This document shows, one piece after another, positions 29,029 through 36,240 of a DNA stretch of 64,000 bases. Position numbers and translations under genes: made by a program. The DNA comes from Candidatus Scatosoma sp. (lineage in GTDB: Bacteria; Bacillota; Clostridia; Christensenellales; Borkfalkiaceae): NCBI GenBank assembly GCA_045537295.1, contig JAZSPG010000070.1, positions 34,955 to 98,954 of the forward strand, given 5' to 3'. Position 1 is the first letter of the stretch; the number at the start of each line of letters is the position of its first letter. The notes under the pieces are model-generated. The model was given only the letters and a program-made list of their open reading frames with translations. It searched no databases and was not told the DNA's origin.

Positions 29029-30540
29029 GTGGAAAAAATCGGTATTATTGATTTAGGCTCAAACACGGCGCGGTTGCTCATTGTGGAGATGTTCACCGAC
29101 GGTCATTATATGGTGGTAGACGAGTTGAAAGAAAGCGTTCGGCTCGGTCAAGATATGGATAGGGACGGGTTCTTAAAACCCCAACGCATTGCGGAAACGA
29201 TAAAAACCTTGAAAATGTTCAAGCGTCTTTGCGACACGAGCGGGGTAGAACGCATTATCGCCGTAGGTACGGCGGCGGTGCGTCGCGCGAAGAACCAACG
29301 CTCGTTTTTAGACGAAATTCAGGTTTCGTGCAATATCACCATTCGCGTACTTACCGAGGAGGAAGAGGCGGTCCTCATTTACAGAGGGGTTATCAACTCG
29401 ATGGACATACCCAAAGGGCTTATCCTCGAAATCGGCGGTGGAAGCACGAAAATCGTGTACTACAACCGTAGAAACCTGCTCAACTACGCGTCTTTGCCGT
29501 TCGGCGCGGTAACGCTTACCGATTTGTTCGCGAGCGACGCAACGCCTGAGGAATCGGCAAAACATATCGAAGAATTTTTCACCGAACAGCTGAAAAAACT
29601 GCCTTGGCTGAAAGAGGTAGACCCCGAGGCGCAAATGATAGGTGCGGGCGGTTCGTTCCGTAACCTTTTCAAAATCACCAAGCTCGTAAGAAAATACCCC
29701 TTGGACAACCCGCATAACTACCGTTTGAACGCGGAGGATTTCACGGGTATTTACGATATGCTCAAAGTTCTCGACGTGGACAAGCGTAAGAAGATTAAAG
29801 GGCTTTCGCCCAAGCGCGCGGACATTATGCCCGCCGCAATGGCAATCGTTAAATCTTTCGTTTCGTATATGAATATCAACGAGTTCGCAATTTGCGGTTG
29901 CGGGCTTAGAGAGGGGCTTATGCTCAACCAAGCGTTGCCTATTACCACGGAAAAACCTATTTCCGACGTTTTGGGGTACAGCTTGGATACGCTGGTGAAA
30001 TACCACGGTTGCGACGTAAAACACGTCGAACACGTTATGCAACTTTCCGTACAGCTTTTCAAACAGCTTCGCGTATTGCATAAATTTTCCCGTCAATACC
30101 TGAAAATACTTAAAATCGCGGCGAGTATGCACGACTGCGGTAGACGGTTGAAATATTACAATCACGCCCGCCATAGCTGGTATACGACGCTCAACGCCTC
30201 TATTTACGGCGCGACGCACCGTGAAATCGTGTTGGCGGCGTTCGTTGCGGGCTGTCACAACCGCGAGGAAATTCCGATGATAGAATGGCAAAAATACAAG
30301 GACCTCGTTTTAGAAGAGGACTTGGACGCGGTGAAAAAATTAGGCGTACTGCTTCGTATCGCGGAGAGCTTGGATAGGTCGCAATGCGGTGTGATTACGG
30401 GCGTAAACTGCGACGTACTCGGCGATTCCGTGATTATGAAAACGGAAGTTACGGGCGACGCGTCGCTGGAAATTCGGGACGCGGAATCCGCTAACGTCGA
30501 GTTTAAGCGCGCGTTCCATAAAAATCTCGAAATCTTATAA
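29029..30540 (+). CDS. Ppx/GppA-family exopolyphosphatase with HD domain
   Basis: IGIIDLGSNTARLLIVE and EIGGGSTK (ASKHA fold) plus a C-terminal HD region (MHDCGR). GTG start after AGAGG. Confidence 0.9.
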   Translation: MEKIGIIDLGSNTARLLIVEMFTDGHYMVVDELKESVRLGQDMDRDGFLKPQRIAETIKTLKMFKRLCDTSGVERIIAVGTAAVRRAKNQRSFLDEIQVSCNITIRVLTEEEEAVLIYRGVINSMDIPKGLILEIGGGSTKIVYYNRRNLLNYASLPFGAVTLTDLFASDATPEESAKHIEEFFTEQLKKLPWLKEVDPEAQMIGAGGSFRNLFKITKLVRKYPLDNPHNYRLNAEDFTGIYDMLKVLDVDKRKKIKGLSPKRADIMPAAMAIVKSFVSYMNINEFAICGCGLREGLMLNQALPITTEKPISDVLGYSLDTLVKYHGCDVKHVEHVMQLSVQLFKQLRVLHKFSRQYLKILKIAASMHDCGRRLKYYNHARHSWYTTLNASIYGATHREIVLAAFVAGCHNREEIPMIEWQKYKDLVLEEDLDAVKKLGVLLRIAESLDRSQCGVITGVNCDVLGDSVIMKTEVTGDASLEIRDAESANVEFKRAFHKNLEIL

Positions 30541-30669
30541 AAGGAAAAAAACCGCTCTTTCAAAACGCCGACGAGGCTTTGCGGACGGGCGGTTTCTTAT
30601 TTCTTTTGGAATGATTTGCGCCTAACGGCGCGTGAAGTTTCGCTTTCGGCTCAATGAATTGGGCTATCG

Positions 30670-30812
30670 CCATAAATTGAAATGCAAAGCATTTCATTAT
30701 TGTAATTATTCCACAATGCAAAACTTTGTTTTGCAATTCACGCCCGTAGGGCAATTCACGAAATTTATTTCAATGCACGCAAAGCAATGCTTTGCATTTC
30801 ATTATACTATGG
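30670..30812 (+). promoter_or_regulatory. Inverted-repeat-bounded leader domain upstream of maf
   Basis: The 17-mer gaaatgcaaagcatttc (30679-95) recurs inverted at 30784-30800 (16/17). ccata (30670) is complementary to tatgg (30808, includes the maf ATG). Internal palindrome at 30717-35 and direct repeat gcaattcacg x2. Confidence 0.5.
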
Positions 30813-31390
30813 ACTGGATACTTGCAAGCGCCTCGCCACGCAGAAAAGAACTTTTTGGCGAAGTCATTAAAAAACCGTTTGATATTATCGTCGCGACGGG
30901 CGAGGAAAAAACGGAGGGCGGTTTGACGCCCGAGGCGCTCGTTATGCGCCTTGCCAAGCAAAAAGCGGAGGAAGTTGCCACGTTAGCGCAAGCTAAAAAC
31001 AAAGCGGTACTCGGCGCGGATACCGTCGTCGCGTTGGGCGACGAAATTCTCGGTAAACCCAAAGACGAAAAGGACGCGTTTCGTATGCTAAAAGCGCTGT
31101 CGGGCAACACGCACGAGGTTTATACGGGCGTTTGTATCGTGTATACGCAAAACGGCGAACGCAAGACAAACAGTTTTGCCGTTTGCACGAAGGTGAAATT
31201 TTACCCGCTTAGCAACGGGCAAATTAGGGAGTATATCGCGACGGGTTCGCCGATGGACAAGGCGGGCGCGTACGGGATTCAGGACGGTGGGTTGGTAGAA
31301 AAAATCGAAGGTAGCTTTACCAACGTCGTCGGACTTCCCGTAGAGGAATGTATAAAACAAATCCGCCTTTTGCAAGGCGAAGAAGAATAA
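30809..31390 (+). CDS. maf: Maf-like nucleoside triphosphate pyrophosphatase
   Basis: Motifs ILASASPRRKELF, GADTVV and AGAYGIQD. The ORF-track start 30632 adds 59 non-homologous residues. Confidence 0.9.
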   Translation: MDWILASASPRRKELFGEVIKKPFDIIVATGEEKTEGGLTPEALVMRLAKQKAEEVATLAQAKNKAVLGADTVVALGDEILGKPKDEKDAFRMLKALSGNTHEVYTGVCIVYTQNGERKTNSFAVCTKVKFYPLSNGQIREYIATGSPMDKAGAYGIQDGGLVEKIEGSFTNVVGLPVEECIKQIRLLQGEEE

Positions 31391-31449
31391 CTCGACGCAT
31401 ACCTGCCCTATGCGTTTAGGTCAAAAAAGCAGAAAAAAGGGAGATAGCT

Positions 31450-32457
31450 ATGTGGAAATTGTCCATTGATTTGGGTTCGTCTACGACGAAAATATACCGC
31501 GCGGATACGAGTAGCGGTATCGTTCTTGCCGAGCCGTCCTGCGTGGCGGTGGCGGGCGAGGAACGCGAGGTGAAAGCCATAGGCAAGGACGCCAAAAACC
31601 TGATAGGCAAAACGGCGGAATACACCAGTATTATCTACCCCGTGTACGAGGGCGAAATCGTGGATATGCGTTTAGCCGTCGCTATGCTCAAAGAGTTTTT
31701 CAACCGTATCGGTATAAAACCCGCGTCCCTTCGTCGCGCGCAAATTTTGATGAGCGTACCCTGCGGTGCGCCGTCGCGCCTTCTCTCTCAATACGCGAAT
31801 TTAGCCGAAGAATGTGGCTTAAAAAAGGTATTTTTCGTAGAACAGCCGTATTTATGCGCGGTGGGTGCAGGCGCGGTGCTGAGCGATTTTGACCCCGTTT
31901 TTTGCTTGGATATCGGCGGGGGTGTAACGAATATCGCGGTGGTGTCGGCGGACGGTATTATCGCGGGCGTGTCTATGAATATCGGCGGGAACAATATCGA
32001 CGCGAATATTTTAGCTAAGGTTGCGCGCGTAAATAAATTAAAGATAGGCGCGCTGACTGCGGAACGCTTAAAAAAGGAAATCGGTTCGCTCGCCCCGCAC
32101 GCGCGCGGAACGATGGTCGCGGAGGGTAGCTCGCTGGATACCTGTCGCCCGTTCGCGTCAGTCATTCAAGCGTCCGACTTGTCCGACTGTATTAAGGTGT
32201 ATATCGATAAAATCATAGAATACGCCACGACGGTATTAAGAAAATTGCCCGCGGAAGTATCGGCGACGGTGAACAGAAACGGCGTGTACTTATCCGGCGG
32301 AGTGATGAATTTACCCTACTTAGCGCAGTATATCGGCGCGAAACTCGAAATGCGCTACCACGTTTGCGAAGAACCGCAATTTGCGTCCGTTTTGGGCGGT
32401 GGAACGGTAATTCGGGACAAAAGTTTGTTAAACGCCTTTGCAAAAGAGAACGAATAA
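31450..32457 (+). CDS. mreB: MreB/Mbl-like actin-family protein (divergent)
   Basis: Motifs SIDLGSSTTKIY, LDIGGGVTNIAV and LSGGVMNL. It follows maf, but no mreC/mreD follows it. Confidence 0.8.
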   Translation: MWKLSIDLGSSTTKIYRADTSSGIVLAEPSCVAVAGEEREVKAIGKDAKNLIGKTAEYTSIIYPVYEGEIVDMRLAVAMLKEFFNRIGIKPASLRRAQILMSVPCGAPSRLLSQYANLAEECGLKKVFFVEQPYLCAVGAGAVLSDFDPVFCLDIGGGVTNIAVVSADGIIAGVSMNIGGNNIDANILAKVARVNKLKIGALTAERLKKEIGSLAPHARGTMVAEGSSLDTCRPFASVIQASDLSDCIKVYIDKIIEYATTVLRKLPAEVSATVNRNGVYLSGGVMNLPYLAQYIGAKLEMRYHVCEEPQFASVLGGGTVIRDKSLLNAFAKENE

Positions 32458-32468
32458 AAAATTTTCTT

Positions 32469-32511
32469 AATCGCGCAATCCCTTGTAAATAAAGGGCTTA
32501 CGCGATTTTTT
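32469..32511 (+). terminator. Intrinsic terminator of mreB-like gene
   Basis: aatcgcg..ccctt-loop-aaggg..cgcgatt followed by tttttt. Confidence 0.7.
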
Positions 32512-32564
32512 CGTTTGAAAAATAAAAAAAATAAAAAAAATTTAAAAAATTTTTCAAAAACCCC

Positions 32565-32592
32565 TTGACAAATAAAAATTTTATGCTATAAT
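32565..32592 (+). promoter_or_regulatory. Very strong sigma-A promoter with A-tract UP-like region
   Basis: TTGACA-N16-(TGc)TATAAT preceded by about 50 nt of A/T tracts (32514-32564). Confidence 0.75.
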
Positions 32593-32754
32593 ATAAGTAC
32601 AAAAAGAAAGAAACGAACAAAAAATGTTCGAAACTTTCAAAAATAAAAAGAGGGAAAACCGATGCACAGCTAAGAGATAGCCGAAAGGGAAGTCGGCAAA
32701 GTGCCGTAGGGATACGGCGAAAAAAATAACTGTTAAAGGAGGGTAAGAAAAGCG

Positions 32755-32814
32755 ATGATTCCTTACAACTTTACCAACAGGTACTTTAACAAAGAAGTGA
32801 GAACGGGGGGTTAG
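32755..32814 (+). CDS. Candidate 19-aa peptide MIPYNFTNRYFNKEVRTGG
   Basis: ATG lies 8 nt after AAAGGAGGG. It is the only SD-preceded ORF inside the orphan transcript. Confidence 0.3.
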   Translation: MIPYNFTNRYFNKEVRTGG

Positions 32815-32963
32815 TCCAATGAACTATGAAATTGAGGAGTGTCAAAAATAGAGAAATATCCGTAAAGGAAAAGCGCGGGCAACCGCAATGAAATTGAGTT
32901 CAAAAAGACACGGATATAAAGAGAGCGTAACACTCTGAAAAATTGAATATAACGAAAAAGTAG

Positions 32964-32998
32964 AAAATCCTGCGTTTTGGGCGCGGGATTTTTGTTTT
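32964..32998 (+). terminator. Intrinsic terminator of the orphan transcript
   Basis: aaaatcctgcg-N7-cgcgggatttt, then tgtttt. Confidence 0.8.
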
Positions 32999-33015
32999 GA
33001 GTTAGCGACAATGAA

Positions 33016-33044
33016 TTGACAAACGCGAAAAAAAGCCGTATAAT
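33016..33044 (+). promoter_or_regulatory. Consensus sigma-A promoter abutting the nifS start
   Basis: TTGACA-N17-TATAAT. ATGs lie 1 and 7 nt after the -10. Confidence 0.7.
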
Positions 33045-33051
33045 AATGGTT

Positions 33052-34197
33052 ATGGAAACGCCTATTTATTTAGACCACGCGTCCACGACGCCGTTGGACG
33101 AACGAGTTCTTGAAAAGATGACGCCGTATTTAACGGAAATTTTCGGTAACGCCGATTCCCCGCACGCGATAGGAAGAAAAGCTATGAGCGCGGTGGATTT
33201 AGCGCGCGATAAAATCGCGGAACTTATCAACGCGCGGAAAAACGAGGTGTATTTCACTTCGGGCGGAACGGAAAGCGACAACTGGGCAATGCTTGGCGGA
33301 GCGCGTGCCAAAAAAGCGGAGGGCAAACGCAAAGTGGTGCTGTCCGCTATCGAACACCACGCCGTTTTATCCTCAGCCGAGCGCCTTGAAAACGAGGGCT
33401 TTGAAGTGGTGTACTTACCCGTAAACGAAGGGGGCAGGGTTGCGTTGAACGCGCTGGAAAGCGCGATTACGCCTGATACCGCGCTCGTTTGTTTAATGTC
33501 CGCGAACAACGAAACGGGCGTGTTGCAACCTATCGACGAGGCTTGCGAAATCGCGCATAAAAACGGTGCGCTGTTTTTCACCGACGCGGTGCAGTCCGCA
33601 CCGTATATCCCGTTGGATATGCAAAAATGCAAGGCGGATATTTTATCCTTTTCGGCGCATAAATTTTACGGACCGAAAGGTGTGGGCGCGCTGTATATCA
33701 AAAACGGCGTGAAGATGCAAAAGCTCGTCGGCGGAGGCGAGCAGGAACGCGGTTTGCGTGGCGGTACGGTCAACGTACCCGCGGTGGTAGGGCTTGCCGA
33801 GGCGTACGCGCTCGCCCGCGAGAAAATGCAGGAAAACAACGAAAAGATAAAAAAGCTTGCAAAGCTGTATTTACGCGAAATTTCTGTCTTGGACGGCGTA
33901 ACGAGAAACGGCGAAACGCAAAACGCCCTGCCGTCCGTTTTGAATTTACGCTTTGCGGGCGTAAAAAACACGGCGTTTTTATACAAAATGGACTTAAACG
34001 GCGTATGTCTTTCGGCGGGTTCGGCTTGCGCGAGCGCGTCGGTAAAACCCAGCCATGTGTTGACGGCAATGGGGTTGAGCGAAACGCAGGCGAAAGAGAG
34101 CGTTCGGCTGAGTTTTGGGAGAAACAACACGGAAGAAGAAGTTATCCGCGCGGGGCGTTTGACGGTAAAAACGGTAAACGAGTTACGCGAGTTTTAA
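33052..34197 (+). CDS. nifS: Cysteine desulfurase (class V aminotransferase, NifS/IscS type)
   Basis: PLP-lysine SAHKFYGPKG and active-site SAGSACAS. Start ATG 33052 (METPIYLDHAST) is chosen because of promoter position. ATG 33046 and TTG 33016 are alternatives. Confidence 0.9.
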   Translation: METPIYLDHASTTPLDERVLEKMTPYLTEIFGNADSPHAIGRKAMSAVDLARDKIAELINARKNEVYFTSGGTESDNWAMLGGARAKKAEGKRKVVLSAIEHHAVLSSAERLENEGFEVVYLPVNEGGRVALNALESAITPDTALVCLMSANNETGVLQPIDEACEIAHKNGALFFTDAVQSAPYIPLDMQKCKADILSFSAHKFYGPKGVGALYIKNGVKMQKLVGGGEQERGLRGGTVNVPAVVGLAEAYALAREKMQENNEKIKKLAKLYLREISVLDGVTRNGETQNALPSVLNLRFAGVKNTAFLYKMDLNGVCLSAGSACASASVKPSHVLTAMGLSETQAKESVRLSFGRNNTEEEVIRAGRLTVKTVNELREF

Positions 34198-34249
34198 CCG
34201 CGGACGGTAAAAAAGGAAAAAATTTTCGTAAAAATGCGCGTGCAATGCC

Positions 34250-34278
34250 TTTACTAATAAAAAAAATTATGATATAAT
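34250..34278 (+). promoter_or_regulatory. Sigma-A promoter of ferredoxin gene
   Basis: TTTACT-N17-(TGa)TATAAT. Confidence 0.6.
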
Positions 34279-34313
34279 ACTATATAGAAAAAATCAATCG
34301 GAGGTAAAATCTT

Positions 34314-34487
34314 ATGGCATACAGAATTACGGATGCTTGCGTAGCTTGCGGAGCTTGCGAGGGTACTTGCCCCGTCGAAGCGATTGCGATGGGCGATAAA
34401 GGTATTTACGCTATCAACCAAGACGTTTGCGTAGAATGCGGTGCTTGCGCGTCGGAATGTCCTGCGGAAGCGATTGTAGAAGAATAA
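34314..34487 (+). CDS. 2x[4Fe-4S] clostridial-type ferredoxin (57 aa)
   Basis: CVACGACEGTCP and CVECGACASECP clusters, with GGAGG 8 nt upstream. It is below the ORF-track length cutoff. Confidence 0.85.
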   Translation: MAYRITDACVACGACEGTCPVEAIAMGDKGIYAINQDVCVECGACASECPAEAIVEE

Positions 34488-34508
34488 TCCGATTTTATTC
34501 AAAAAAAC

Positions 34509-34543
34509 AAAGAGCGTTGACGAAACCCGTCAGCGCTCTTTTC
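34509..34543. terminator. Bidirectional terminator (ferredoxin / small minus-strand ORF)
   Basis: agagcgttgacg-N5-cgtcagcgctct followed by tttt. Confidence 0.85.
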
Positions 34544-34562
34544 CGCTTTATCGCAAAATTTT

Positions 34563-34730
34563 TCACGGAGCGTTTTTTAATTCTTTTTCTAATCGGTCGA
34601 GGAAACGGCGGGCGAAATCGGCTACCGCCTGCAATTTCTTAATCAGACCGAGTGCAAGTTTCTCCGCAAGCCCTAAAAAGAGCGCGTCGATACCCGTACG
34701 GCGAAACAATTTTTTCAATGCGGTTCTCAT
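34563..34730 (-). CDS. Hypothetical 55-aa amphipathic helical protein
   Basis: ATG 34730 follows GGAGAA. It has its own promoter and a leader of about 105 nt. Sequence: MRTALKKLFRRTGIDALFLGLAEKLALGLIKKLQAVADFARRFLDRLEKELKNAP. Confidence 0.4.
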   Translation of the reverse strand: MRTALKKLFRRTGIDALFLGLAEKLALGLIKKLQAVADFARRFLDRLEKELKNAP

Positions 34731-34843
34731 AAAAATTTTCTCCTTTTCCGAAGTTTTATTTTCCCGTAAAACCGCCCCGCCGTCAAACGGAAGGAAGAAC
34801 AAACGCCGAGGGATATGCGCTTTTTCGTCCGTTGCGAGCGGTA

Positions 34844-34870
34844 TTATACCATACTTTTTCCTCTTGTCAA
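34844..34870 (-). promoter_or_regulatory. Promoter of the 55-aa ORF
   Basis: Minus strand TTGACA-N15-(TGg)TATAAT. Confidence 0.55.
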
Positions 34871-34919
34871 GGGGGTACTGTCGTTTTTTTTGCGTTTTTC
34901 TAAAAAATTTTTTTGCGAC

Positions 34920-34930
34920 TTAACCAAGGT
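34920..34930 (+). promoter_or_regulatory. TTAACCAAGGT motif 12 nt upstream of the ruvC -35
   Basis: Exact 11-mer shared with the two feoA-promoter sites. Confidence 0.5.
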
Positions 34931-34942
34931 GAATAAACGCAC

Positions 34943-34971
34943 TTGACAAATTTTCGCATTTAAGGTATAAT
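34943..34971 (+). promoter_or_regulatory. Consensus sigma-A promoter of ruvCAB-queA
   Basis: TTGACA-N17-TATAAT. Confidence 0.75.
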
Positions 34972-35002
34972 AAAGACTGAACTATTGCGGTTGGAGAGAA
35001 AG

Positions 35003-35641
35003 ATGATAATTTTGGGTATAGACCCAGGACTTGCGACGCTCGGGTTCGGGGTAATTGAAAAGGACGAACGAGGCAATTCCCGCGCGCTCGATTGCGGGGT
35101 GATTACCACGCCCAAAGAAGAGGGTTTGCCCGTCCGACTTGCGATTTTAGAGGGAAATTTACAAAAAATTCTTGACAAATACAATCCCGACGAGATTGCG
35201 ATGGAAGAGCTGTTTTTCGCAAAAAACATCACGACGGGTATCGCGGTTGCCCACGCGCGCGGGGTCGCGCTGTTGACCTGCGTCAAGCATTGCGGGAAGT
35301 TATACGAATATACCCCCTTGCAGATAAAACAGGCGTTGACGGGCTACGGAAAAGCGGATAAAAAACAGATACAAACCACCGTCACCGCGCAGTTGAGATT
35401 AAAAACAATCCCCCGCCCCGACGACGCGGCGGACGCGCTTGCCGTAGCGCTTTGTCACGCGTCCACCAGCCGTTTCGGCGAGCTGTTCGCGGTGGGGAAT
35501 ATGACGAGAACGAAAGGCAAGAACACGAGCGCGGGTACGGCGGGTATGCTGATTGAAGAAGCCGAACGCCGTCGCGCGTTGAAAATCGCTAAGGCACGTG
35601 AAAAAGCTATGCAAAAACAGGAGGAAACGGATAAAAAATGA
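35003..35641 (+). CDS. ruvC: Holliday junction resolvase RuvC with basic C-terminal extension
   Basis: Motifs MIILGIDPGLATLGFG, MEELFF and DAADALAVALCHA. GGAGAG RBS. Confidence 0.9.
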   Translation: MIILGIDPGLATLGFGVIEKDERGNSRALDCGVITTPKEEGLPVRLAILEGNLQKILDKYNPDEIAMEELFFAKNITTGIAVAHARGVALLTCVKHCGKLYEYTPLQIKQALTGYGKADKKQIQTTVTAQLRLKTIPRPDDAADALAVALCHASTSRFGELFAVGNMTRTKGKNTSAGTAGMLIEEAERRRALKIAKAREKAMQKQEETDKK

Positions 35642-36240
35642 TTGCGTATTTAAGAGGGAAAGTACTTACCGTTACCGCGGAAACGGCGGTTTTGGAAGTC
35701 AACGGCGTGGGGTACGAAATTTACTGTTCGGGCGGAGCGTTCCGTAAAATCACGGTGGGCGAAACGGCGGAATTATACACCTATTTACAGGTAAAAGAGG
35801 ACGGCGTGACGCTGTACGGGTTTGCCTCGCCTAAGGAAAAAGAATTGTTTTTGAAAATCATTTCCGTTTCGGGTGTCGGCCCGAAACTTGCCGTTTCCAT
35901 TTTGACGAGTTTGTCCGCGGACGAGCTTACCCAAGCAATCGCGACAGCGGATATCAAGCGTTTGAGCAAAGCCAAAGGCTTGGGCAAAAAGACGGCGGAA
36001 AAAATAGTCTTGGAACTCCACGGCAAAATCTCAGCGGTGGAAGTTATCAGCGCAAGCGGGGATAGTTTGACGCAAACGGAGCAACACGAGCGTTTATCGG
36101 TGGTGGACGAGGAAGCGGTGTCCGCGTTGACGGGTCTGGGTTTTACTAAGAACGAGAGTATGCAAGCGGTAAAACGCGCGAAAGAGAACGGTGCGACGAC
36201 GGTGGAAGATATTATCCGCAAAGCGCTTACGGGGCTGTAA
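35638..36240 (+). CDS. ruvA: Holliday junction DNA helicase RuvA
   Basis: OB-fold N-terminus and HhH motifs ISVSGVGPKLA / GLGKKTAEKIV. ATGA overlap with ruvC. Confidence 0.93.
   Translation: MIAYLRGKVLTVTAETAVLEVNGVGYEIYCSGGAFRKITVGETAELYTYLQVKEDGVTLYGFASPKEKELFLKIISVSGVGPKLAVSILTSLSADELTQAIATADIKRLSKAKGLGKKTAEKIVLELHGKISAVEVISASGDSLTQTEQHERLSVVDEEAVSALTGLGFTKNESMQAVKRAKENGATTVEDIIRKALTGL

Follow-up and report, generated by a model that had tools for sequence, protein, structure and literature searches.

Between mreB and nifS, a 64,000-nucleotide stretch of the genome of Candidatus Scatosoma sp. (GenBank assembly GCA_045537295.1, contig JAZSPG010000070.1, positions 34,955 to 98,954 of the forward strand; hereafter the window, numbered from its first letter) contains a transcription unit of approximately 400 nucleotides (nt) bounded by a promoter at 32565-32592 and an intrinsic terminator at 32963-32998. 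It is on balance somewhat likely that this unit encodes an autonomous structured RNA, specific to Candidatus Scatosoma (hereafter Scatosoma) and its sister genus, that engages ribosomes and is coding in part, similar to dual-function RNAs. The RNA gene itself is robust and widespread in its lineage, and the organisms that host it are uncultured. An earlier note on this DNA, made from the sequence alone, had proposed an unclassified structured RNA or a dual-function small RNA, and this proposal is supported by the covarying helices, the reading frames kept among relatives and the coding-type substitutions described below.

The unit is present as a single copy in its own genome, and BLAST searches found it in 23 of 24, and then in 103 of 124, species genomes of Scatosoma (own genome included). 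The check for conservation in relatives that the earlier note had proposed was therefore positive, and with more than 100 species carrying the unit, the label "orphan" does not hold in the sense of unique. A core motif of the RNA was found in 72 records of a 185,579-species collection, all from this group; a phage origin was considered and rejected, as the core motif had zero matches among viral contigs. The Scatosoma records containing the unit are metagenome-assembled genomes (MAGs) of gut origin, the animals including deer, sheep and goat, with one isolate name suggesting a human-gut MAG collection as its source. The 21 Scatosoma genomes without a match are found mostly among the larger assemblies listed (about 2-3.1 Mb), and there are hints of a distinct subclade in which the RNA is absent or diverged. 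Two MAGs each contained two copies of the 5' domain on separate contigs (C268 and C289 in G020, C91 and C97 in G059), which may represent a strain mixture in the bin or a true duplication.

The boundaries of the unit are conserved. Eighty further loci were retrieved, and among the 85 usable loci compared, all had a near-perfect promoter at a fixed distance from a conserved 5' end (ACAAAAG...), and a terminator was found to close the unit in 69 of these 85. In the present genome, the A/T tract followed by TTGACA-16-TG-TATAAT that had been described earlier was confirmed as a 12/12 consensus match (Table 1), as were the clean intrinsic terminator and the purine-rich transcript, the body of which (32599-32962, from a predicted start near A32599) is 69% purine and 46% A. 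The earlier note described the unit as very strongly promoted. Perfect matches of this kind are common in this genome: there are six in the window including the one at 32565, so that the promoter of the RNA unit is not exceptional by itself. The five other perfect TTGACA-N16-17-TATAAT promoters lie at 33016, 34843-34870 (minus strand), 34943, 39116 and 59860 of the window, with a divergent pair around 34843-34971 upstream of ruvC, and consensus promoters seem to be used unusually often in this genome. The promoter of the RNA unit is set apart by its UP-element-like tract, with similar A/T tracts also present at the loci of relatives, and by its conservation in 85 of 85 loci. Among the 72 loci with 8 kb of context, mreB was located upstream on the same strand in 58, ending 75-320 nt before the RNA unit in 52 of these, and nifS was found downstream in none of the 72 related loci; only the present genome has it there. 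Because promoter, terminator and body are conserved while the downstream gene changes, the unit is autonomous and not a leader of nifS, in agreement with the earlier suggestion.

The predicted fold of the RNA has a free energy of -91 kcal/mol (z = -4.1 compared to dinucleotide shuffles). Six helices were tested in an alignment of the 5' domain (A1, 63 sequences), where 89.5% of cells were paired compared to 32-50% when the partners were slid, and two-sided changes were observed in 17 pairs and 105 cells compared to 5-9 pairs and 16-29 cells when slid; none of 500 shuffles reached these pairing and compensatory values. The P1 hairpin (helices 1 and 2 of A1) is 84-89% paired with compensatory changes, and its loop is kept in the sister genus (as ACAAAAAATGTT). 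All three local hairpins of the earlier note were found (32680-32697, 32703-32718 and 32875-32886), and their description as GNRA-capped is correct for the second (GGGA) and, in this genome, the third (GCAA), but not for the first, which has an 8-nt loop. The clearest covariation was observed in the second of these (H2), where UA is replaced by CG in 21 sequences and CG by UA in 13 around an invariant GGGA loop. Further downstream, a Shine-Dalgarno (SD) sequence, AAAGGAGGG, and an anti-SD-like sequence, AUUCCUUAC, could form a hairpin that sequesters the SD and places the start codon in its loop. This hairpin is predicted by both RNAalifold and the minimum free energy (MFE) fold, and the columns of 32735-32766 are invariant in A1; as it is 93% paired but nearly invariant, covariation is uninformative about it either way.

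For the 3' domain (alignment A2, 67 sequences), RNAalifold on MAFFT alignments recovered the structure only partly because the inner hairpins differ in length, and the helices were therefore tested singly. The long-range 8-bp pair proposed earlier (ATATCCGT/ACGGATAT) is supported by compensatory base changes: at 32856-63 with 32910-17, 93.9% of cells were paired compared to 15-34% when slid, with compensatory changes in five of five core pairs (66 cells). This helix encloses the hairpin GCGG-GCAA-CCGC (32875-86), which is kept in relatives with varying size, and a conserved single strand, GAAAUUGAGUUCAAAAAGA (32890-908). An outer closing helix, additional to those of the earlier note, forms a mean duplex of 7.5 bp with its own partner compared to 5.3 bp with partners from other species (66 loci), and its compensatory variants include GGAACG/CGUUCC, GGGCGU/ACGCC and GGAGCAU/AUGCUUC; its ACACUCU strand stands directly before the invariant ...ACAACUGAAUA motif, which in the sister genus reads AAAAYUKAAUA. 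The 3' domain occurs in two subtypes in A2 (loci L001-L087), type I with GAAAUUGAGUUCAAAAAGA in 31 sequences including this genome and type II with CGUAUGG and an extra hairpin in 36 sequences, and the outer helices and 3' motif are common to both. The 11-mer atgaaattgag does occur twice, as had been noted (32826 and 32888, with 0.06 occurrences expected by chance in the window), but the repeat is not conserved, its first copy lying in a variable stretch and not being repeated in relatives, and it was rejected as a functional element.

A series of SD, ATG and stop recurs in every species. The open reading frames (ORFs) of this series comprise ORF0 (2-3 codons in the family, with no peptide pattern), ORF-A (10 codons in 51 of 55, MIPSH.EA.A), ORF-B (9-22 codons, ending in DTPTY), ORF-C (12-21 codons, with the core RYFNKE) and ORF-D (9-10 codons, starting with MN a few nt after the stop of ORF-C). 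The present genome contains ORF0, one 19-codon ORF that combines an A-type start (MIPY) with the C-type core, and ORF-D, and is without ORF-B and the middle domain of the longer relatives. To the SD-led 19-codon ORF recognized in the earlier note, two more with an SD can thus be added, of 3 codons (32662-73) and 10 codons (32819-51). An ORF of 2-3 codons was found at the ORF0 site in 60 of 69 transcripts, with TAA, TAG or TGA as its stop, and the sequence CC-R-ATG at its start is invariant. The ATG of ORF-D lies 4 nt past the TAG of the 19-codon ORF, and its end lies 4 nt before the long-range helix; its ATGAA is invariant (67 of 67), and it has 9-10 codons in 58 of 59 cases, with a GTG start in one species of the sister genus.

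The spacing between start codons and peptide motifs varies in whole codons. In the ORF-B of long forms, the distance from ATG to DTPT takes seven values between 15 and 48 nt, all multiples of three, in every one of the 33 loci that allowed the start to be located. The distance from ATG to RYF is 21, 24 or 27 nt in 45 loci. The conserved codons vary mostly at synonymous sites: in the RYFNKE ORF, Arg is encoded by CGG in 27 and AGG in 23 cases, Tyr by TAC in 45 and TAT in 5, Phe by TTT in 42 and TTC in 6, and Lys by AAA in 44 and AAG in 11, and further conserved columns contain Pro as CCG (27) or CCA (23), and Asp as GAT (37) or GAC (8). When coding potential was assessed as the synonymous share of single-base codon differences in frame versus the +1 and +2 frames, the share peaked in frame for ORF-B (0.48, compared to 0.25 in +1 and 0.15 in +2), ORF-A (0.40, compared to 0.29 and 0.21) and ORF-C (0.37, compared to 0.28 and 0.20). 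As far as sequence can speak to it, the conservation of frame, the variation at synonymous sites and the in-frame synonymous excess favour a translated small protein.

The family extends beyond Scatosoma. A covariance model of the 5' domain (R1) was built and run against 151 genomes of the order, scoring 164-177 bits within Scatosoma and giving weak scores (23-28 bits) in three of four sister-genus genomes and a few other genomes. Three weak hits that were inspected away from the RNA-bearing loci (L164, L166 and L167, one of them in the sister genus) lay inside coding sequence and were discarded as false. A BLAST search from the RNA locus of the sister genus found the unit in one more genome of that genus, and diverged homologues of approximately 430-450 nt each are present in three of its four genomes. 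These units retain the promoter and P1, carry an SD-led ORF of 4 codons (the local version of ORF0) and a GAAA-capped hairpin, and contain AAGGAGGTAA followed by an ORF of 10-16 codons, as well as an 8-codon ORF from TCCAATG (with a GTG start in one species); at the 3' end they have the AAAAYTKAATA motif and a terminator. The sister-genus unit does not adjoin mreB.

Transcripts of the family (0.4-0.9 kb) fall into two length groups, one of about 385-490 nt (including this copy) and the other of about 575-870 nt; the median over all of them is 659 nt. Most relatives are long forms of 0.6-0.8 kb with extra modules and four to five ORFs per transcript, compared to three in this copy, which is a short isoform. 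The middle domain that is missing here (L008:1700-1990, and in L062 and L072) spans 200-350 nt; small hairpins with UUGACGAA loops recur in it, and it also holds the DTPTY-ending ORF and a GGUAGGYACUCG motif. One locus (L005) carries two RYFNK-type ORFs in tandem and the closest relative here (L010) carries two MIPY... ORFs, which indicates that the SD-ATGAT module has been duplicated. In a quick tree built from MreB alone, with the sister genus as its root and a weakly supported key fork, long forms occur on both deep branches, at least three changes of form are needed, and 9 of 10 short forms, including this one, fall in one nested group. The most parsimonious explanation would be that this copy lost its middle part through a deletion between repeated modules that fused ORF-A to ORF-C. 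The sister genus is also short in architecture, and the change may thus have run in either direction.

Table 1. Features of the RNA unit and its borders (positions in the window)
Feature	Position	Strand	Description
End of mreB	32467-32506	+	Compound hairpin and T-run, from sequence reading; mreB stop at 32457
UP-element-like tract	32517-32560	+	A/T-rich; the 45 nt before the -35 are 89% A+T
Promoter	32565-32592	+	-35 TTGACA 32565-70, TG 32584-85, -10 TATAAT 32587-92; 12/12 consensus match, 16-nt spacer
P1 hairpin	32606-32638	+	Arms GAAAG/CUUUC and CGAAC/GUUCG, near-invariant loop ACAAAAAAUGUU; MFE fold
ORF0	32650-32673	+	SD GAGGG 32650-54, 7 nt, ATG CAC AGC TAA 32662-73; 3 codons
Hairpin H1	32680-32697	+	GCCGA / 8-nt loop / UCGGC; 89% paired, two-sided changes in 4 of 5 pairs
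Hairpin H2	32703-32718	+	GCCGUA-GGGA-UACGGC, GNRA-capped; compensatory changes in 5 of 6 pairs
SD, start and anti-SD-like sequence	32735-32766	+	SD AAAGGAGGG 32735-43, near-invariant spacer, ATG 32755-57, AUUCCUUAC 32758-66
19-codon ORF	32755-32814	+	MIPYNFTNRYFNKEVRTGG and stop; RYFNKE family, core codons 32779-96
ORF-D	32805-32851	+	SD-like GGGGG 32805-09, ATG 32819, 10 codons, TAG 32849-51
Closing helix of 3' domain	32834-32936	+	GGAGUGU 32836-42 (in ORF-D) / ACACUCU 32930-36; MFE fold
Long-range helix	32856-32917	+	AUAUCCGU 32856-63 / ACGGAUAU 32910-17; encloses inner hairpin and single strand
3' motif	32937-32949	+	GAAAAAUUGAAUA, local version of near-universal UACAACUGAAUA; columns invariant in A2
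Intrinsic terminator	32963-32998	+	14-pair stem and 3-nt loop (32963-32993), T tail to 32998

If the RNA is indeed both structured and partly coding, its operation could be envisaged as follows. The consensus promoter would give rise to a purine-rich transcript whose 5' third is predicted to fold into P1, H1 and the GNRA-capped H2 and to carry the 3-codon SD-led mini-ORF. The very strong SD AAAGGAGG could pair with codons 2-4 of its own RYFNKE ORF, which probably gives a 19-residue peptide or else acts through its nascent chain. The stop of this ORF falls just ahead of the start of ORF-D, and the second half of ORF-D doubles as a strand of the closing helix; because ORF-D overlaps the closing helix and ends immediately before the long-range helix, its translation would have to unfold the 3' domain. 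Ribosomes moving through these coupled ORFs would therefore need to melt that domain, and we infer that translation and RNA fold would be coupled. In addition, ribosomes held at the strong SDs would probably protect the RNA against RNase J, a 5' exonuclease that this genome encodes, by analogy with yrzI, since an SD-led ORF0 near the 5' end and perfect SDs of 8-9 nt resemble the ribosome-parking protection of that message (PMC12067863). A more speculative and rather unlikely extension is that the RNA is a translation-gated riboregulator, in which loading at ORF0 and passage through the 19- and 10-codon ORFs would switch the 3' domain from closed to open and back and expose GAAAUUGAGUUCAAAAAGA, reporting translation capacity or arrest of the RYFNKE nascent chain to some trans-acting function.

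There are several potential alternative explanations. The most serious, although it seems doubtful, is that the RNA is purely non-coding, with the SD-like runs and AUGs serving as structural elements or as decoys for 30S subunits or proteins (like a STAB-SD or a ribosome sponge) and with no peptide of importance. The strong covariation throughout the RNA is consistent with this possibility, as are the spacer between SD and ATG, which is near-invariant in its nucleotides, codons 2-4 of the 19-codon ORF, which would be fixed through their pairing to the SD, and the lack of any NCBIfam family in a search with 20-22-residue relatives of the peptides. Several further observations count against a translated product. 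In the 19-codon ORF, GGAGG is separated from the ATG by 12 nt rather than 8, a wide spacing for efficient initiation, and this SD may also be sequestered; the 8-9 contiguous pairs of AAAGGAGG are counted to a canonical anti-SD that is assumed, the 3' end of the 16S rRNA being outside the assembly. ORF-D has no in-frame synonymous excess (0.31, compared to 0.47 in +1 and 0.30 in +2), its sequence is accounted for by helix pairing, and it serves as an internal control. The synonymous test used a protein-guided alignment, which could favour frame 0, and total differences by codon position are nearly flat, so that any peptide-level selection would be confined to short motifs. The short lengths of the ORFs are themselves weak evidence because early stops arise by chance in A-rich sequence, and in the sister genus the RYFNKE motif is replaced by YFA.T.E peptides. 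However, a purely non-coding RNA would not readily explain why frames are preserved across seven plus three length classes, why Arg is retained through both CGG and AGG with other conserved codons varying synonymously, why the synonymous share peaks in frame in three ORF classes, why TAA, TAG and TGA interchange at fixed stop positions, or why ATG gives way to GTG in one species.

The opposite possibility, that the unit is an ordinary small-protein mRNA with the RYFNKE micropeptide as its sole product and hairpins that merely stabilize the message, would account for the coding-type signal in the RYFNKE ORF and the long-form DTPTY ORF and for the strong SDs, and has a precedent in yrzI as a stable message with several small peptides. 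It is nevertheless improbable, as approximately 85% of the transcript lies outside the 19-codon ORF yet is conserved and covarying, the 3' domain of approximately 100 nt has nested long-range helices and invariant single-stranded motifs, and the peptide motif differs between the genera that share the RNA architecture. A sponge for a GGA-binding protein similar to CsrB or RsmZ, or an A-rich Hfq-binding RNA, would fit the recurrent GGA/GGGA motifs in hairpin loops and SD-like runs, the differing number of modules between species and an A-R-N-like repeat at the 5' end, but is highly improbable: neither CsrA (PF02599) nor Hfq (PF17209) was found in this 93%-complete genome, control genomes gave CsrA hits, and the GGGA loop is a closed GNRA tetraloop rather than an open GGA loop. 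Finally, it is scarcely credible that the unit serves nifS as a long 5' leader or as a read-through attenuator, the latter raised in the earlier note. The gene is located directly downstream, and GCGCGGG (32873-79), named in that note as a possible competitor for the left arm of the terminator, can pair with this arm over 9 bp in the present genome. However, this pairing potential is not conserved (a mean of 5.4 bp for own partners versus 5.2 bp across species, 68 loci), the neighbourhood shared with relatives is that of mreB and not nifS, no riboswitch or T-box matched, and nifS (PF00266) has its own 12/12 promoter at 33016-33044, as had been noted.

The earlier note had matched the unit to no known family, and database searches agree. 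With Rfam 15 there were zero matches at the gathering score across the 64-kb window, only chance-level hits at E<=10 for 32400-33100, and, when four long-form loci and one locus of the sister genus were searched at E<=0.1, zero hits; neither a tRNA nor a transfer-messenger RNA (tmRNA) was detected with ARAGORN. Identities as a T-box, riboswitch, RNase P RNA, tmRNA, 6S, SRP or OLE, ROOL, GOLLD, HEARO or raiA RNA were rejected for want of a cmscan or ARAGORN match. The large Bacillota RNAs OLE, ROOL, GOLLD, HEARO and raiA are similar in size range, strong covariation and occurrence in Clostridia, but none is defined by SD-ATG mini-ORFs. Ribosome-parking stabilizers at 5' ends are represented by the cryIIIA STAB-SD and the ermC and aprE leaders. 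The likeness lies in the near-perfect SD complement located not far from the 5' end, at which a 30S subunit could be retained so that decay in the 5'-to-3' direction is blocked; however, a STAB-SD has no start codon, whereas here every SD precedes an ATG and in-frame stop, and the Scatosoma element is located in a stand-alone RNA rather than in the 5' untranslated region of a long gene. Among the papers searched, only analogues were found, namely dual-function RNAs and yrzI. The RNA is best regarded as a new family, absent from Rfam, within a known kind, that of structured RNAs which also carry small ORFs, and its multi-ORF layout and the overlap of an ORF with a helix are unusual.

Bacillus subtilis yrzI (spyTA) is a very stable polycistronic mRNA of approximately 500 nt, in which a strong SD holds ribosomes and blocks RNase J1; it encodes a toxin/antidote pair of peptides (17-52 residues) and is cleaved by Rae1 (PMC12067863). 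Both RNAs are short and terminator-bounded, with several SD-led small ORFs and an exceptionally strong SD. However, there is no sequence relation, the ORFs here have 3, 19 and 10 codons with no sign of toxicity, their peptides being much shorter than those of yrzI and not related to them, the Scatosoma RNA has extensive covarying structure outside its ORFs, and Rae1/YacP (PF05991), unlike in the yrzI system, was not found in this genome. Dual-function RNAs of Firmicutes include RNAIII/hld, SR1/SR1P, Psm-mec, Pel and VR-RNA, of which RNAIII, with its 514 nt and 14 stem-loops, codes for a peptide of 26 residues (PMC12612679, PMC12310071). Similar to these, the present RNA appears from its promoter and terminator to be a stand-alone transcript, is in the range of 200-500 nt with many stem-loops, and would encode a small peptide and work without Hfq, but it shares no homology with them, contains several mini-ORFs rather than one and has a shorter peptide (19 residues). 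Fifty start regions in the window were scanned crudely for duplexes, and no convincing base-pairing target emerged. The mreB start region ranked 35 of 50 for pairing with the conserved 3' single strand, and such pairing was rejected; the best match in the window lay inside a coding region.

The gene order around the unit (window 29029-36240) is ppx/gppA - maf - mreB - [RNA] - nifS - ruvC - ruvA, with mreB identified by Pfam PF06723 (E=7e-67). In Firmicutes, mreB usually has mreC and mreD behind it, and the RNA unit occupies their place. This 93%-complete genome encodes one good MreB, but no MreC (PF04085) was found in it. A weak match to SurC at the mreB end hairpin (E=0.046, minus strand) was dismissed as chance. 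Long open frames occur on the minus strand because the plus strand is purine-rich (66 residues at window 32811-33011 here and 211 residues at L008:1527-2162), and gene callers may annotate them as hypothetical proteins. An antisense protein gene was rejected, as the minus-strand frame is broken here and is not conserved as an ORF, and the promoter and terminator point the opposite way.

If the RNA is real, it is probably among the most strongly promoted genes of widespread uncultured Clostridia of the animal and human gut, yet it is invisible to current annotation because Rfam has no family for it and gene callers miss ORFs this short. A fold with covarying helices, together with mini-ORFs whose frames are conserved and of which one overlaps a helix, would provide a clean natural case for the coupling of translation and RNA structure in a trans-encoded RNA, and the RNA bears on the question of whether peptides of 10-20 residues are functional products. 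In addition, the family illustrates evolution through the gain and loss of modules consisting of an SD and an ORF.

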